Below, in pieces: positions 1,104 through 39,756 of a stretch of DNA of 52,154 bases. Under the pieces are notes generated by a model, which was not told the origin of the DNA, did no database searches, and was given only the letters and a program-made list of their open reading frames with translations. The stretch is from Candidatus Woesearchaeota archaeon (GTDB taxonomy: Archaea > Nanobdellota > Nanobdellia > Woesearchaeales > GW2011-AR9), in assembly GCA_018670095.1 (NCBI GenBank), contig JABHRR010000075.1:1-52154 (forward strand), given 5' to 3'. The stretch's first letter is position 1, and every line of letters starts with the position of its first letter. The position numbers and the translations under genes are program-made.

Positions 1104-2072
1104 TTATTTTTTCTTTTTTTTAGCTGGTTTTTTCTTAATAATTTTCTTAACAACCTTCTTTCCTTTACTTTTGCTTATCTTTTTAGGTTTATCTTTTTTT
1201 AATGGGATTATCGCTTTTCTACTAACTTTATTGAACTTTTCTAAATCTTCTAAAATGTCAGATGCAATAAAGCTGTAACCTTTTTTCTTTTTTAATAACT
1301 GATCGCCAACCCAACCATTAATGAATGATCCGGCAACAGCACTTTTGAACAAATCTTTGGTTTTAGCTAAAAAGCCAACAACTAATCCTGCCATTACATC
1401 TCCCGTGCCAGCTTTAGTCATTCCTTGATTACCTGTACGGTTGTAAGCAACTTTATTTCTGGAAATGATGATGTCTGTAGCACCTTTAACCAATAAAACA
1501 TTATTGTTTTGTAAAAAGTATCTTAAATTGCCTTGTAAAATTTCAGCTTTCTCTTTAGCATTTGCAGACTTTAATTTTGGTAATAAGAATTCTTTCCCAC
1601 TATTAACTAAAAGCATATCTAATTCTGCTTCGTGCGGTGTTAAAATTGAATTGTGGAAATCTTTGAATGACATTGATTTTAATGCATCTGCATCAACCAC
1701 TTTTAGTTTCATTGATTTTTTGATAAAGTATTGACAGAATTTATCGGCTTTTCTGGTAATTCCGTTACCTAAACAGATGGCATCAAACTTGTCGGAGTAC
1801 TTAACCATTTCTTTAGCGTTTTTAATATTGAAATTTGAACCTTTAATTTTATGAGTGATCAAATCAGTAGAGATTCTGTTAATCGTCCAGGAAACTTTTT
1901 CCGGAGCAGCAATCGTTACTGAATCACAGCCAGATCTTAATGCGGATAATCCTGCAAGTGCTACTGCACCAACATATTCTTCTGAACCGCCGATGATTAA
2001 TGCATAACCATTCTCGCCTTTGTGTGACGTTTTTTTCCTGTCCATTAACTTTTTTATTTGGTTTATATTCAT
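1104..2072 (-). CDS. ADP-dependent NAD(P)HX dehydratase / YjeF C-terminal-type carbohydrate kinase-fold protein
   Basis: GENGYALIIGGSEEYVGAVALAGLSALRSGCD and GTGDVMAGLV match the YjeF-C signature. About 45-aa Lys-rich C-terminal tail. Confidence 0.75.
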   Translation of the reverse strand: MNINQIKKLMDRKKTSHKGENGYALIIGGSEEYVGAVALAGLSALRSGCDSVTIAAPEKVSWTINRISTDLITHKIKGSNFNIKNAKEMVKYSDKFDAICLGNGITRKADKFCQYFIKKSMKLKVVDADALKSMSFKDFHNSILTPHEAELDMLLVNSGKEFLLPKLKSANAKEKAEILQGNLRYFLQNNNVLLVKGATDIIISRNKVAYNRTGNQGMTKAGTGDVMAGLVVGFLAKTKDLFKSAVAGSFINGWVGDQLLKKKKGYSFIASDILEDLEKFNKVSRKAIIPLKKDKPKKISKSKGKKVVKKIIKKKPAKKKKK

Positions 2073-35732: not shown

Positions 35733-36161
35733 TTATCTAGCAGTTTGATGATCTTCTTTAACCAAATTTCCTTTAGGATCATATTCTGTATGTTCCATTT
35801 TCCATCTGCCACCGAAAGGTTCGAAAACTCCATCGTTGTAACATCTTACTTCAGTTTTAGAACCATCAGAATGAGTTTCTCCGAATAATTGTTCTTCAAA
35901 CATACCATCTCCATCGTAATCCATTCTTACAAATCTTTTTGAACCATCTTCAATTCTAACGTAAGTGTTTTTTATTCCTCGATTATCAACGTTTACTACA
36001 CCTTTTGTTAAAATTCCATTTTCAATTGGATTAGTTCCACAGAATTGATTTACATCGTAAGTTGCAGTTGTTGCACAGCCACCTAAAGCAGTTAAAGCTG
36101 TAATTCCAACTAGTAATCTTTTTCCATTATTAACAATATTTTCTAACATTTTCATTTTCAT
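35733..36161 (-). CDS. Lipoprotein of unknown function
   Basis: Signal ...GITALTALGGC. ATGA-type 4-nt overlap with the upstream gene. Confidence 0.55.
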   Translation of the reverse strand: MKMKMLENIVNNGKRLLVGITALTALGGCATTATYDVNQFCGTNPIENGILTKGVVNVDNRGIKNTYVRIEDGSKRFVRMDYDGDGMFEEQLFGETHSDGSKTEVRCYNDGVFEPFGGRWKMEHTEYDPKGNLVKEDHQTAR

Positions 36162-36424
36162 TCATCCTCGTCAATTCGATTATTTCTAAAATATGAACCA
36201 TCAACACGATTATTAAATCCTTGATCCAATAATTCTTGTGGGTCTGGTTCAGCAGCAAAAAATCCAACGCCTAGTTGTTGATAAGTTGTACTTGAATTAA
36301 CTGCACCATTATATGGATTTGTCCAAAGTTCTAAATCTTCGATAACTTCATTAGCTAAATCTTTTTCACGCTTTTCAGCAATAGCGATTTTTTTCATTTC
36401 TTCCAATTGATCAATAGTTACCAT
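36158..36424 (-). CDS. Hypothetical acidic protein (first gene of the small-protein operon)
   Basis: 88 aa. House promoter aaacatttataaatga (reverse complement of 36471-36486) and SD gaggga upstream. Confidence 0.5.
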   Translation of the reverse strand: MVTIDQLEEMKKIAIAEKREKDLANEVIEDLELWTNPYNGAVNSSTTYQQLGVGFFAAEPDPQELLDQGFNNRVDGSYFRNNRIDEDE

Positions 36425-36526
36425 TTTAATATATCCCTCATTTAGGTTAATATTACTCTAGAAGAAACTTTCATTTATAAATGTTTCGCTTATTTCATCA
36501 CTTCAAAGTAACAAAATATAAAAAAG

Positions 36527-36644
36527 AGCCCCTGGTGGGAATTGCACCCACGACCTTCAGCTGTCTGAAATCAAAAATTTCTGAGCAAATCTCACTCAGT
36601 TCGATTTTACAAGGCTGACGCAATAGCTACTATGCTACAGAGGC
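36527..36644 (-). tRNA. tRNA-Thr(UGU) with 45-nt intron at 37/38
   Basis: Acceptor GCCTCTG/CAGGGGC. D-arm GCAT-AGTAGCTA-TTGC. Anticodon stem TCAGC/GCTGA, loop CTTGTAA. T-arm GTGGG-TGCAATT-CCCAC, U73, then CTTTTT. Confidence 0.8.
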
Positions 36645-37250
36645 ATTAATCCTTTTGATATGATAAGGGTTAGAAGATCCAATTAATTCTCTCCATTTTA
36701 AAACTTTCTGTTTTCCGAAGATTGTTACCCTAAAAGCATCTTGGATTTCTCCTTTGCTTTTACAAATATAAGCACCAAAATCAAACTCATTTAGTAGTTC
36801 TTGAACTTGAAGTGCCAAATTTTTACTAATAGTAGTTATTGCAATAACAGGATACTTGTTTCTTTGTAAGTGAATACTTCCATCAGTATCAAATATACCT
36901 TTTATCAATCCTAATTTGCATTCTTTAGTTGTGATTAATGATTTTGGAATTGTAATTTGGCCTTTTTTTCCTACTGGAAAATTAAGTTGATTTTTCAATG
37001 TTTCAAAAATCTCTTTAGAATAGATTGTTAATCTCAAACAATTCTTTTGTTCATAAATATGTGTTTTTGTTTTAAATATATTATTAATTAGGGGTTCAAG
37101 ATGTTTATAATAATATTCTTTATCATTAATTTTATGGCCTGTTATTTGAATCATTTTTGTTGTTCTTCCATAAGAACCAATAAAACCATCTCCAATAAGA
37201 ACACCAATAAACTCAGCAAGTTTTGGACATTTTAGGTTTAAATTTATCAT
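36630..37250 (-). CDS. Double-motif LAGLIDADG homing endonuclease (free-standing)
   Basis: LAEFIGVLIGDGFIG and LIKGIFDTDGSIH. The last 15 nt, including the TAG stop, are positions 1-15 of tRNA-Thr. Confidence 0.8.
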   Translation of the reverse strand: MINLNLKCPKLAEFIGVLIGDGFIGSYGRTTKMIQITGHKINDKEYYYKHLEPLINNIFKTKTHIYEQKNCLRLTIYSKEIFETLKNQLNFPVGKKGQITIPKSLITTKECKLGLIKGIFDTDGSIHLQRNKYPVIAITTISKNLALQVQELLNEFDFGAYICKSKGEIQDAFRVTIFGKQKVLKWRELIGSSNPYHIKRINASVA

Positions 37251-37394
37251 TTTATCAAATCATAATTTATGATGATACAATTTAAAATTAATATTGCACT
37301 AAGCCACTGGGGCAATATCTACTCTTTTATTTACTCTATTTATTAAGTTTTTGGCTGGAAACATTTAAATATTTAATCTCGCCCCAAATTTATA

Positions 37395-38012
37395 ATGGCT
37401 CAATCTATAGATTTCTTATTTTTGGACGATCAAGAATGTATCTTGGAATTACTAGAAGCAAAAGCAGATTTATTAGAATTATCTTACAAATCTTTTGCTA
37501 AAGGAAAAGACGCATTACTTTACTTATCTTCAACAGAAAATTTTCCTAAAGGAGGATTTTCAGACATGAGGCTTCCCGATGTTTCTGGTTATTTAGAAGA
37601 AGGGAGTACAGAATCTTTAGCTCCTGAACAAATGGGTGTTCTATTTCGTAAAAATGAACGACAAATGAATTTTAGATATGTTACTGGCCATATCTCTGAA
37701 AGAGACCGTCAAGTTGCTGATAGAACCGGTTGTAAAATTTTGTGGAAAGGTAGTGCTTTGTTCTTAACAAAAGTTGAATCTATCATGAGTTCTGTTTACG
37801 TTCAAAAGTTGATTGAAAATAATTTATCACTTGTAGCTAATCGAGATGAACCAACTCATTTTCCTCTTAAAACTTTAAACTATTTTAATCGCCATTTAAC
37901 TCCTGAACGTTTAGAAGAAGTTTGTGATAATCTTGTTGAAATTGCTTTTTTAGAAGGGGTTCAGAAAGTTGAAGAAGACAAATATTACTGTTTAAGAGAC
38001 CATTCTAAATAA
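37395..38012 (+). CDS. CheY-like receiver-domain protein (orphan, divergent)
   Basis: LFLDD acidic pair and FSDMRLPDVSG phospho-acceptor context. No kinase partner or clear output motif seen. Confidence 0.45.
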   Translation: MAQSIDFLFLDDQECILELLEAKADLLELSYKSFAKGKDALLYLSSTENFPKGGFSDMRLPDVSGYLEEGSTESLAPEQMGVLFRKNERQMNFRYVTGHISERDRQVADRTGCKILWKGSALFLTKVESIMSSVYVQKLIENNLSLVANRDEPTHFPLKTLNYFNRHLTPERLEEVCDNLVEIAFLEGVQKVEEDKYYCLRDHSK

Positions 38013-38076
38013 TTAATAATCACTTTTGAGACAATAAGATTTAAAAATAACTCTTTCTGACTTTTTTGTCGCACAA

Positions 38077-38108
38077 CCCACTGGTCAAGTGCGGACAAAG
38101 TATATAAA
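38077..38108 (+). promoter_or_regulatory. Copy 3 of the conserved 32-nt promoter/operator module
   Basis: cccACTGGTCAagtgCGGACAAAgTATATAAA. No ATG at the expected +23; the next ORF starts 215 nt downstream. Confidence 0.65.
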
Positions 38109-38283
38109 TTAGTTCCACTACTAGGATCATAAAAAAGAGGTAACGCAAAACCATACAAAAAAACAAAGATTTTTTTGGGGTTCCAGAAAAGTAAAGCTTT
38201 TCTCAGAACCCTCAATAAAATTATTTTGGTAAAACCAATAAGAAATTTAATGGGTTTCGCTAAATTGACTCTTTTTTTACAAA

Positions 38284-38313
38284 CTCTTTGTTTTAATGAA
38301 TAGAAACAAAGAG
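38284..38313 (+). promoter_or_regulatory. Perfect 10-bp hairpin whose 3' arm overlaps the SD of LAGLIDADG gene 2
   Basis: ctctttgttt-N10-aaacaaagag. SD gaggtga at 38311-38317, ATG at 38323. Confidence 0.5.
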
Positions 38314-38322
38314 GTGATTTAA

Positions 38323-39000
38323 ATGAAAATGTCTGGTTTTAAAATGGATGCAGAAATTGCTTACTTTATTGGAGTTCTTCACTCCGATGGTTGTATTTAT
38401 CGTTTTAATGATAAAAAAAGAAAGAGGATACAAATACGGTTAAACTTAACCATTGGTCAGAAATCATTACCTATGGCTTCAGAATTTAAGAGAATATTAT
38501 TTAAGCGATTTGGTAGGACAGTTAATATCAGAAAAGTCCCTAACAAGATTTCTTATATGGTTCAAACATCTATTAATAGGCTTTATTGGTTATTTAAACA
38601 ATGGGAAGACAAATCTATTCCTTTCATTATTTCAAATGACTCCGTTCTTTTTGGATCTTACTTGGCAGGAATCATAGATGGTGATGGTTATGTGAAGCTT
38701 AAGAAACGAGATGGTAAAACTTTCGCATGTCAAATTAAAATATCTGCTGGTTATATTCACTATCAATTATTGGAACAAATAAAATTCCACTTGGGTTGTG
38801 GAGCACATATAGAAAAAGATGTTAATAAAAAAGGGATGGGTTACAGCCATTGTTTTCTTATTTCAAAAAAGAATTATCGATATATTCAGCATTTAATCTT
38901 GCCTTACATAAAAATGCCTTATAAAAAAGAAAGAATTAAAGAATATATAAAAAAATGGGCCTACAGGGATTCGAACCCTGATTTCGGCCATAATCAATAA
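38323..39000 (+). CDS. Double-motif LAGLIDADG homing endonuclease (free-standing)
   Basis: IAYFIGVLHSDGCIY and YLAGIIDGDGYVK. The last 45 nt are antisense to the 3' part of the tRNA gene at 38956..39097. Confidence 0.75.
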   Translation: MKMSGFKMDAEIAYFIGVLHSDGCIYRFNDKKRKRIQIRLNLTIGQKSLPMASEFKRILFKRFGRTVNIRKVPNKISYMVQTSINRLYWLFKQWEDKSIPFIISNDSVLFGSYLAGIIDGDGYVKLKKRDGKTFACQIKISAGYIHYQLLEQIKFHLGCGAHIEKDVNKKGMGYSHCFLISKKNYRYIQHLILPYIKMPYKKERIKEYIKKWAYRDSNPDFGHNQ

Positions 39001-39097
39001 ATGATTATGTCAACCGGTCCGAAGCTTCGGCAACACTTACGTGTTTCGGCCGCACTTTCCGGAGTTTCAGGAACTATCCAGGTTATGCTATAGGCCC
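38956..39097 (-). tRNA. tRNA gene (142 nt) with at least two non-canonical intervening sequences; anticodon not assignable by eye
   Basis: Perfect acceptor GGGCCTA/TAGGCCC, T-arm CAGGG-TTCGAAT-CCCTG and A73. D-arm GCAT-AACCTGGATAG[about 19 nt]GTGC. About 60 nt of hairpins sit where the anticodon arm should be. Confidence 0.55.
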
Positions 39098-39131
39098 AAT
39101 AAAAATGTAAAAGAAAGGGTTATTTTTAAAG

Positions 39132-39584
39132 TTAATGCTTATTTTCAAACTCTTCTAACAATTTCCCGGAATCCATACCCATCGAATATTCCAGATTATC
39201 AATATTTTTACTTGCTACAAAAGAAATAAATTTTTCTTGTTTCTCAGAATCCCAAGAAGCGAACTTTCTTGCCGTACCACATAAATGTTTGATATCGCAA
39301 TGATTCTCTCTTAAATCAGAATCGTGTAATGTTGGATGTAATGGACAAAAAATATTACCATCTTTCTCAATCAAATTTCGACAAACTCCGTGTCTTAAAT
39401 CACTAGGATGTGCTCGATCTCTAAACGAAAGAAATTGTGCTTTCACTCGCGGACTTTTATTTTCAAATTCGATAGTGTTCAATCTAATCGCTTCTTTGAT
39501 TTTCTCCCTAGAGATGAAATCGTGTCCACAGCAGCCCATGCATCCACCGTTGATTTGGCAGAGTGGTGTTAAGTTTTCTGTCAT
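39132..39584 (-). CDS. Cys-rich YkgJ/UPF0153-like zinc/iron-chelating domain protein
   Basis: CQINGGCMGCCGHDF plus CPLHP and HCDIKHLCG. Confidence 0.6.
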   Translation of the reverse strand: MTENLTPLCQINGGCMGCCGHDFISREKIKEAIRLNTIEFENKSPRVKAQFLSFRDRAHPSDLRHGVCRNLIEKDGNIFCPLHPTLHDSDLRENHCDIKHLCGTARKFASWDSEKQEKFISFVASKNIDNLEYSMGMDSGKLLEEFENKH

Positions 39585-39756
39585 TGTTGTACTTTTACTA
39601 GATTTTTTTTTAAAGTTTTTGTTTGTTTATGTGTGATTGTATTTAACATCGCGTTGTTAAATCCCCCGGACGAAGTGAGAGTGCAATGTGGTGCGGAGTG
39701 AAAAGAAGCAAGTTTTTTGTGACCTTGCATAGAAGTTGGCGCCCTCACCTAAGAGA

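Follow-up and report, generated by a model that had tools for sequence, protein, structure and literature searches.

A free-standing LAGLIDADG endonuclease cassette that probably homes into tRNA-Thr(UGU) genes and replaces the resident allele in a woesearchaeal genome

Introduction

Much work on free-standing homing endonucleases has been done in phages and organelles, and in archaea homing endonucleases are known mainly from rRNA introns and inteins. The mORFs of fungal mitochondria are LAGLIDADG open reading frames (ORFs) that are fused to the end of a host gene and bring a replacement copy of it, while the displaced piece stays nearby. Synthetic cleave-and-rescue drives, engineered in insects with Cas9, pair a nuclease directed against an essential gene with a linked, divergent working copy. 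Here we analyse a 52,154-nt stretch of DNA (the window; GenBank contig JABHRR010000075.1, positions 1 to 52,154) from the marine Candidatus Woesearchaeota archaeon G000, a bin estimated to be 84% complete, and specifically a LAGLIDADG gene, ORF1, whose reading frame ends inside a tRNA-Thr(UGU) gene. Two allele types of this tRNA gene, A and B, occur among the relatives, and the layout at ORF1 is, in order, a native tRNA promoter, a stub of a type-B tRNA, a leader, ORF1 and a complete type-A tRNA. Working labels beginning with G, L, C and X denote genomes, loci, contigs and sequencing runs, respectively.

Phage T4 SegB recognises a conserved tRNA motif, cuts there and drags tRNA neighbours along (PMC2330249). 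Like SegB and other Seg and Mob enzymes, ORF1 is a free-standing gene beside tRNAs that is absent in close relatives and is co-inherited with flanking tRNA markers that replace those of the recipient. It thus has the layout of intronless homing, being free-standing with co-converted markers, but it lies outside the GIY-YIG and HNH phage families, as SegB is a GIY-YIG enzyme of phage co-infections with neither a tRNA overlap nor a stub, whereas ORF1 is a LAGLIDADG protein of an archaeal chromosome, is linked to one tRNA species and has a frame that ends within the tRNA. ORF1 also shares its fold, its size and two LAGLIDADG motifs with catalytic Asp with I-DmoI, I-Tsp061I and PI-PfuI. Those enzymes sit in rRNA introns or inteins, where splicing restores the host product, while ORF1 is free-standing and a duplicated or replaced copy restores the gene.

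Nawrocki et al. report 39 archaeal group I introns, every one of them in an rRNA gene (PMC6125680). ORF1 is borne by neither an intron nor an intein, as the 45-nt tRNA intron does not include it, the tRNA downstream is complete by itself, and stub and type-A body do not fit together; group I intron models gave no match between 30 and 41 kb of the window at E-values up to 10. As in the mORFs, the ORF is fused to the end of its host gene and a displaced duplicate (37297..37313) remains nearby, but the host gene here is a tRNA rather than a protein gene, its duplicated 5′ end supplies the stop codon, and the displaced piece keeps a promoter that faces ORF1. The likeness to cleave-and-rescue is one of logic only, that is, a nuclease beside a divergent working copy; the present case is a natural one, in which cutting and immunity are predictions. 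A literature search returned nothing specific on tRNA-docked LAGLIDADG genes in archaea, a blank that does not prove novelty. On the sequence comparisons presented below, what is new is the set of type-B alleles without the ORF between the same flanks, the 17-nt stub, the allele replacement, the recurrence in three genera and the coexistence of both states in one metagenome.

Results

Layout of the ORF1 locus

The cassette and its surroundings all read on the minus strand. The native tRNA-Thr promoter (37314..37353), now upstream of ORF1, carries the TATA box CTTAATAAAT at 37338..37347, ending 24 nt before nt 1 of the stub, and aligns with the promoter that directly precedes tRNA-Thr in three genomes of the same genus, G045, G043 and G044. 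The 17-nt stub GCCCCAGTGGCTTAGTG (37297..37313) corresponds to nt 1-17 of the displaced resident type-B tRNA-Thr(UGU) and matches the type-B genes of G043 and G044 at 16 of 17 positions. It is followed by a 46-nt leader (37251..37296), homologous in G000 and in G024, a member of another genus, with a TATA-like element TTTTAAATT that ends 28 nt before the ATG of ORF1. ORF1 itself (36630..37250) is an intact gene for a single-chain LAGLIDADG endonuclease of 206 residues. The insert comes to ~665 nt and encodes the LAGLIDADG protein only.

ORF1 is succeeded by a complete type-A tRNA-Thr(UGU) at 36527..36644, which Infernal (Rfam RF00005) scores at 52.3 bits against a gathering score of 29 over model positions 1-71; its acceptor stem is perfect, and 47 nt are inserted in the anticodon loop. 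With its intron option on, ARAGORN reports Thr(tgt) with i(38,45), that is, a 45-nt intron after position 37 at about 36563..36607; by default, without that option, it called no tRNA anywhere in the window. Both the tRNA model and its 5′ end at 36644, as proposed from the sequence alone, are thereby upheld. So is the fusion of a free-standing LAGLIDADG ORF to the tRNA 5′ end: the two genes overlap by 15 nt on the same strand (36630..36644), the last five codons of ORF1 with the stop forming tRNA nt 1-15. ORF1 ends ATT AAT GCC TCT GTA GCA TAG, the TAG being tRNA nt 13-15, and the overlap together with nt 16-17 forms a duplicated tRNA segment at the 3′ end of the cassette. The stop of ORF1 falls where it does because this duplicated segment (tRNA nt 1-16/17) holds its last five codons and stop. 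A look-up of sequencing runs returned no RNA run that contains the locus. Logan contigs of four DNA runs were aligned to window positions 36000-39700, and independent mismatch-free contigs cross the ORF1-tRNA junction in runs X1 (36440-37552) and X8 (36297-36670).

Filled and empty alleles among relatives

The sequence-only reading had called for a comparison of related tRNA-Thr loci with and without the ORF, and such a comparison yields both filled and empty orthologous alleles, with the stub marking the insertion. At a threshold of at least 73% identity, orthologs of ORF1 were found among 113 same-family genomes in G024, G072 and G066 only, and all three genomes of the same genus are without it. 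A 20-kb DNA comparison shows two of them, G043 (85-98% identity) and G044 (80-81%), to be collinear with the window on both flanks with no ORF between them, the flanks being 764 nt apart in the window versus about 132-155 nt in the two relatives. Identity of 98% to G043 sets in at precisely position 37297 and extends across the promoter and the adjacent gene of 205 aa; on the other side, homology resumes in the common tRNA 3′ end, GGGGCTC followed by a T-run.

The segment that takes up this space in G043 and G044 is a type-B tRNA-Thr(UGU) gene that starts GCCCCGGTGGCTTAGTGG and is interrupted twice, by an anticodon-loop intron and by a T-loop intron. Infernal alone missed this two-intron tRNA in both genomes; ARAGORN calls type B as Thr(tgt) after scripted removal of the 33-37-nt T-loop insert. 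Across the family, type B with its intron is the usual allele, and about 40 genomes carry it. The third genome of the genus, G045, has a type-A gene with the same intron as the window, placed directly behind the promoter, and no ORF. We conclude from these alignments that, in the window lineage, the body of a type-B gene is replaced by the 46-nt leader, ORF1 and a complete type-A tRNA.

The same arrangement recurs in two further genera. G024 has the promoter, a stub GCCCCGGTGGCTTAGTG, a homologous leader, the ORF and a type-A tRNA, and its congener G025 has a type-B gene between homologous flanks (89% and 74% identity). In a third genus, G072 and G066 show the promoter, a stub that matches the type-B gene of their relatives, the ORF and an intronless type-A tRNA, and their congeners G058 and G065 have type B. 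A remnant of the ORF, its last 30 codons, stands before a type-A tRNA in G071. Homologous loci are thus filled in G000, G024, G072 and G066 and empty in G043, G044, G045, G025, G058 and G065, and in all three genera the tRNA allele that adjoins the ORF differs, between homologous flanks, from that of ORF-less relatives of the same genus, a pattern of co-conversion.

Metagenome contigs bring this variation to a finer scale. Contigs from runs X8 and X9 match the flank of the window at 337 of 338 positions and then continue as type-B sequence from 37297. Run X8 holds both states, type-B-linked contigs and mismatch-free contigs over type A and the end of ORF1. A salt-lake contig that is ~90% identical to the window has ORF1 and lacks ORF2, a second LAGLIDADG gene described below. 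As contigs with and without ORF1 and ORF2 were found, both cassettes are polymorphic among very close natural relatives.

Conservation of the overlap and of the docking on tRNA genes

A single overlap of this kind could arise by chance, because an ORF that enters a tRNA in this frame often stops at U13-A14-R15. The tRNA-encoded tail, A-S/L/T-V/I-A, or a read-on form ...ASVAQLVRA, is however present in 21 of the 22 homologs that reach the C-terminus (57-99% identity), so the overlap is not accidental. At the four closest loci, L001-L004, ARAGORN places the start of a tRNA-Thr(tgt), with or without an intron, 11-15 nt before the ORF stop, and a relative only 37% identical to ORF1 (L007) keeps the same register.

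Our survey of the wider family covered 80 loci that encode ORF1 relatives (29-87% identity), 78 of them scorable, in Woese-, Pace-, Nano-, Aenigm-, Micr-, Iain- and Undinarchaeota and in one or two bacteria of the Candidate Phyla Radiation. Counting an ORF as docked when a tRNA gene end falls between -120 and +100 nt relative to its stop, we found a tRNA next to the ORF 3′ end at 57 of 78 loci, versus about 2 expected from the tRNA density elsewhere in these loci; 44 of the 57 tRNAs lie on the same strand as the ORF and 13 on the opposite strand. These figures bear out the part of the sequence-only reading that took tRNA genes as landing sites. Its alternative, tRNA introns, is not supported, as the orthologous ORFs of G072, G066 and L002-L004 dock on intronless tRNA-Thr(UGU) in the same register, and we dropped the anticodon-loop intron as a target or as a protection for the same reason.

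Within G000, five of the six LAGLIDADG_3 genes adjoin a tRNA. Two more ORFs of G000 read into a tRNA, one of them ~63 nt into a class-II-like, intron-containing tRNA (G000:C47:19297-19998, plus strand) and the other ~35 nt into tRNA-Pro (G000:C49:11-847, plus strand). The sole LAGLIDADG gene with no tRNA found downstream (G000:C65:23254-23982, plus strand) is placed by the tree with the pre-tRNA-Ile clade.

The identity of the neighbouring tRNA changes 25 times on the protein tree, compared with 37-45 times in 300 shuffles of the labels; since tree rows share labels by descent, we read this result only as inheritance of the tRNA partner along nuclease lineages, which one would expect of enzymes that are sequence-specific. 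Clean clades are those of Thr(UGU), Thr(GGU), 3′-docked Thr, Phe, Ala, Leu, Arg, His and Ile. Stubs that end at nt ~16 and are followed by a TATA-like box and the ORF occur in the Thr(GGU) clade (L022, L031, L054) and also at L030, L016 and L024. A 16-mer stub search across all same-strand loci gave 14% versus 6% in a control that itself contains stubs, a modest excess. By these counts the stub is recurrent; its universality is not supported by the 16-mer search.

In G058, the 3′ end of a type-B tRNA-Thr has another LAGLIDADG gene docked on it, which shares 26% identity with ORF1. This gene (L098, G058:C57, 834-1454, plus strand) lies on the strand opposite the tRNA (1557-1651, minus strand), so different nuclease clades dock at the two ends of tRNA-Thr genes.

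The ORF1 protein

ORF1 matches Pfam LAGLIDADG_3 at 7.5e-16 with 58.6 bits (cut-off 22.5) and has two LAGLIDADG motifs, ..GVLIGDGFI.. and ..GIFDTDGSI... Of the two catalytic aspartates, D21 is nearly invariant and D123 invariant across 24 aligned sequences. An AlphaFold2 model (mean predicted local distance difference test score 93.8, predicted template-modelling (TM) score 0.90) is pseudo-dimeric, with two alpha-beta-beta-alpha-beta-beta-alpha halves. Foldseek matched the model with TM-scores of 0.65-0.78 overall, among them PI-PfuI (5e-11), I-Tsp061I (TM 0.71) and I-DmoI (TM up to 0.78); the TliVMA intein nuclease is also among the best structural matches, and the ORF1 profile matches intein nuclease domains. 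Comparison of the G000 and G024 copies gives a ratio of nonsynonymous to synonymous substitution rates (dN/dS) of 0.10 at dS = 0.71, and the protein has thus been kept functional through a long divergence. The genomic context is chromosomal, with a proteasome subunit and tRNA genes nearby. By motifs, fold and presence/absence pattern, ORF1 is a LAGLIDADG homing endonuclease of the single-chain I-DmoI type, with cleavage predicted.

Relatives of ~320 aa have an extra N-terminal region that is absent from ORF1. In this class, some family matches have precomputed Pfam helix-turn-helix domains and one is named an XRE-family regulator; WhiA-type LAGLIDADG domains are weak matches to ORF1.

The type-A tRNA and its expression

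The type-A tRNA of the window is 99% identical (117/118, intron included) to the G024 copy and 96% identical to the copy of ORF-less G045. Its 45-nt intron has one difference between G000 and G024 although the adjoining ORF has a dS of 0.71, and a homologous intron interrupts tRNA-Thr(CGU) in G003 and in G066, as well as the mosaic alleles for UGU that G042 and G112 carry. The sequence of the tRNA-Thr intron itself appears to be under constraint. A common intron family and 77-80% identity are suggestive of a descent of type A from the CGU isoacceptor, a picture blurred by the mosaic alleles.

In nearly all tRNA genes of G000, a TATA box has its end 24-27 nt upstream of +1, and the displaced native promoter agrees with this geometry. 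A by-eye comparison with these G000 tRNA promoters found no TATA box at the usual -35 to -25 before the type-A tRNA, and between ORF1 and the tRNA the sequence has no T-run of 6 or more. Read-through into the tRNA is plausible, because the tRNA has no TATA box at the usual distance, the native promoter and the leader TATA both face ORF1, and no T-run intervenes; the displaced tRNA promoter may, at least in part, drive ORF1 and the tRNA on one transcript. On such co-transcripts, RNase P cleavage at G1 would strip the ORF1 stop codon, as proposed from the sequence alone, and each transcript might then yield only one of the two products. A candidate internal tRNA promoter is the TATA-like element AAAGTTTTAAAATGG (36693..36707, minus strand), which lies inside ORF1 over the codons K-V-L-K-W, about 49-63 nt before tRNA +1, resembles the tRNA promoters of G000 and is identical at the DNA level in five orthologs while the adjoining codons vary synonymously.

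Proposed mechanism and alternatives

We think it likely that ORF1 belongs to a free-standing homing endonuclease cassette that inserts into the D-loop at nt 16/17, carries a rescue tRNA and replaces the resident allele. Sequence comparison establishes that one orthologous locus has filled and empty alleles, that a stub remains and the tRNA allele was replaced, that this layout recurs in three genera, that both alleles coexist in one sample, that ORF1 is under purifying selection, and that the family is linked to tRNA genes in a clade-specific way. The mobile unit would be the ~665 nt comprising the leader with its own TATA-like box, ORF1 and a copy of tRNA nt 1-16/17, and it would home into tRNA-Thr(UGU) genes at nt 16/17 of the D-loop. 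Judging only from the stub end, the ORF1 enzyme would cut endonuclease-free tRNA-Thr alleles near nt 16/17, and the type-A allele and both cassette junctions, that of the stub included, would escape cutting. Spread would occur by double-strand-break repair, and because the cassette ends in a fresh tRNA 5′ segment, its insertion at nt 16/17 would avoid destroying the tRNA. In the window lineage the whole downstream tRNA would also have been converted, by co-conversion, to the donor type-A allele.

Several observations weigh against this account or narrow it. The type-A gene of G045, with neither ORF nor stub, needs an extra step, either a clean loss or a conversion without the ORF. In G025 (L096, C1, 1450-1760, minus strand) a 16-nt tRNA-Thr stub comes after the promoter, then an unrelated stretch of 86 nt, then a complete type-B gene with a long T-loop insert, and there is no ORF; the stub and the 86 nt may be the scar of a lost cassette. 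Mosaic tRNA-Thr alleles in G042 and G112 make the A/B scheme a simplified one, the stub of L030 is A-like, so that the stub is not always of type B, and many same-strand loci, for example in the tRNA-Ile clade, show no stub. The internal element AAAGTTTTAAAATGG could give the tRNA its own transcript with a ~25-nt leader, decoupled from ORF1. The cut site and the immunity of type A are both read from the stub end only, and every genome compared is a metagenome bin. We also weighed a recent transfer between G000 and G024 but make no such claim, since dS is 0.71 and the 86% DNA identity falls within the 73-89% of ordinary shared genes.

A domesticated protein is the alternative that fares best, and we consider it unlikely. 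ORF1 would then be a DNA- or RNA-binding factor that the host retains, acting for instance in the transcription of tRNA genes or on pre-tRNAs, and its function, not homing, would explain why it is linked to tRNAs. The strong purifying selection on ORF1 would suit such a role, as would the helix-turn-helix domains and the XRE name among the 320-aa relatives, the weak WhiA-type matches and the near identity of tRNA and intron in G000 and G024. Yet both catalytic aspartates are invariant or nearly so, and a gene present in 4 of 113 family genomes, in none of the three of the same genus, and in both states within one sample is distributed unlike a stable host gene; the decayed remnant in G071, the stub and the allele replacement likewise point to insertion.

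It is considerably less probable that the repeat of tRNA nt 1-17 is an att-like duplication left by an integrase or by other recombination, with the LAGLIDADG gene as a passenger. Genes for tRNAs are classic integration sites and integration leaves duplicated tRNA segments; imperfect 17-nt repeats do flank the insert. However, the insert is only ~665 nt and encodes the LAGLIDADG protein alone, the repeats differ at 5 of 17 positions (stub versus type-A nt 1-17) and come from two different tRNA alleles, and the exchange of the whole downstream tRNA fits gene conversion better.

We give hardly any credence to an intron-encoded ORF1, in which the 17-nt piece would be the true 5′ exon, with a large bulge-helix-bulge intron of the D-loop extending from there as far as tRNA nt 17. 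A tRNA 5′ fragment and promoter do lie upstream of ORF1, but the downstream tRNA is complete on its own with its perfect acceptor stem, whereas the stub fails to pair with the type-A 3′ acceptor strand at 6:67 and within the D-stem at 12:23, with mismatches of the same kind in G024 and G072, such that splicing stub to body would yield a worse tRNA than the intact copy. Chance compaction, by which an ordinary gene with no tRNA link lost its stop and ends at the first one in the next gene, would suit a compact genome in which U13-A14-R15 and U8-A9-G10 provide stops in two of the three frames of most tRNAs and read-in ORFs end quickly, but it is excluded for practical purposes by the register kept in 21 of 22 homologs and in L007, the excess of docking at tRNA genes, the clade-specific tRNA and the upstream stub.

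ORF2, tRNA-Arg and associated repeats

A second LAGLIDADG gene adjoining another tRNA had also been noted from the sequence, and this is correct. ORF2 (38323..39000, plus strand; Pfam LAGLIDADG_3/_1) overlaps the 3′ end of a tRNA-Arg gene by 45 nt in antisense. Its cassette of 905 nt (38038..38942, plus strand) consists of a 285-nt conserved leader and the ORF2 body and is inserted just past the tRNA-Arg 3′ end. It is absent at exactly the same junction in G043 and in an X9 contig of depth 21, where 38037 is joined to 38943. Because the cassette junction lies at 38943, the last ~19 codons and stop of ORF2 are native DNA; this tail (38943-39000) consists of the tRNA terminator and then the antisense of exon 4 and intron 3 of tRNA-Arg.

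The tRNA (38956..39097, minus strand; Infernal 32.9 bits) is a tRNA-Arg(UCG). Its three small introns measure about 19, 21 and 28 nt and lie in the D-arm, the 5′ anticodon stem and the variable region, as defined by alignment with the alleles of G043 and G045 and by ARAGORN, which calls the spliced form tRNA-Arg(tcg). An initial ARAGORN parse as tRNA-Arg(CCG) with one 55-nt intron was rejected, as the alignment and the spliced call both give Arg(UCG) with three introns. The exons are identical to those of the G043 allele, which has a single 31-nt intron at 53/54, and G045 has a single anticodon-loop intron, making three tRNA-Arg intron sets within one genus.

The tRNA-Arg gene and its promoter are inverted in G044 (L088) and G045 (L082, 1712-1813) relative to G000 (38956-39143) and G043, and in G045 tRNA-Arg is divergent from tRNA-Thr with a 91-nt spacer. 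A ~50-nt hairpin (GTCGCAC..ACTGGTCA..GTGCGGAC) followed by a TATA box lies at window positions 38070-38124 and has at least 10 copies in the genome, including C27:5734-5772, C27:17793-17829 and copies on at least 7 other G000 contigs. The hairpin heads the conserved ~250-nt leaders of four LAGLIDADG cassettes, those of ORF2, C47, C65 and C58. A second hairpin, at about 38146-38203, has three more copies.

Discussion

If the proposed mechanism is correct, ORF1 would represent a third way into an essential gene without killing the host: no splicing is involved, and instead the cassette brings a working gene copy, uses the first 15 nt of that copy to end its ORF and takes over the promoter. The model predicts cleavage close to nt 16/17 of the tRNA, an allele that resists it, and a precursor RNA that spans both genes. 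As a group, the enzymes would also constitute a natural nuclease set with defined, highly conserved targets.

More tentatively, and with less confidence than in homing itself, we raise the possibility that tRNA-docked LAGLIDADG cassettes are natural cleave-and-rescue drives, in which each clade cuts one tRNA gene and spreads together with an allele that it cannot cut. Both cases in the window fit such a reading, with a one-intron type A in place of a two-intron type B at ORF1, and a tRNA-Arg(UCG) with three introns beside ORF2 where relatives that lack ORF2 have one intron each, at different positions. If this holds, repeated rounds would overwrite resident tRNA genes and their intron sets, which would account for the fast turnover of tRNA alleles and of introns at odd positions in DPANN archaea, and tRNA introns and sequence variants would be part of an arms race with nucleases. 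Because the pattern recurs across many lineages and tRNA species, such cassettes may be a major force behind the fast-changing, intron-rich tRNA genes of DPANN archaea.

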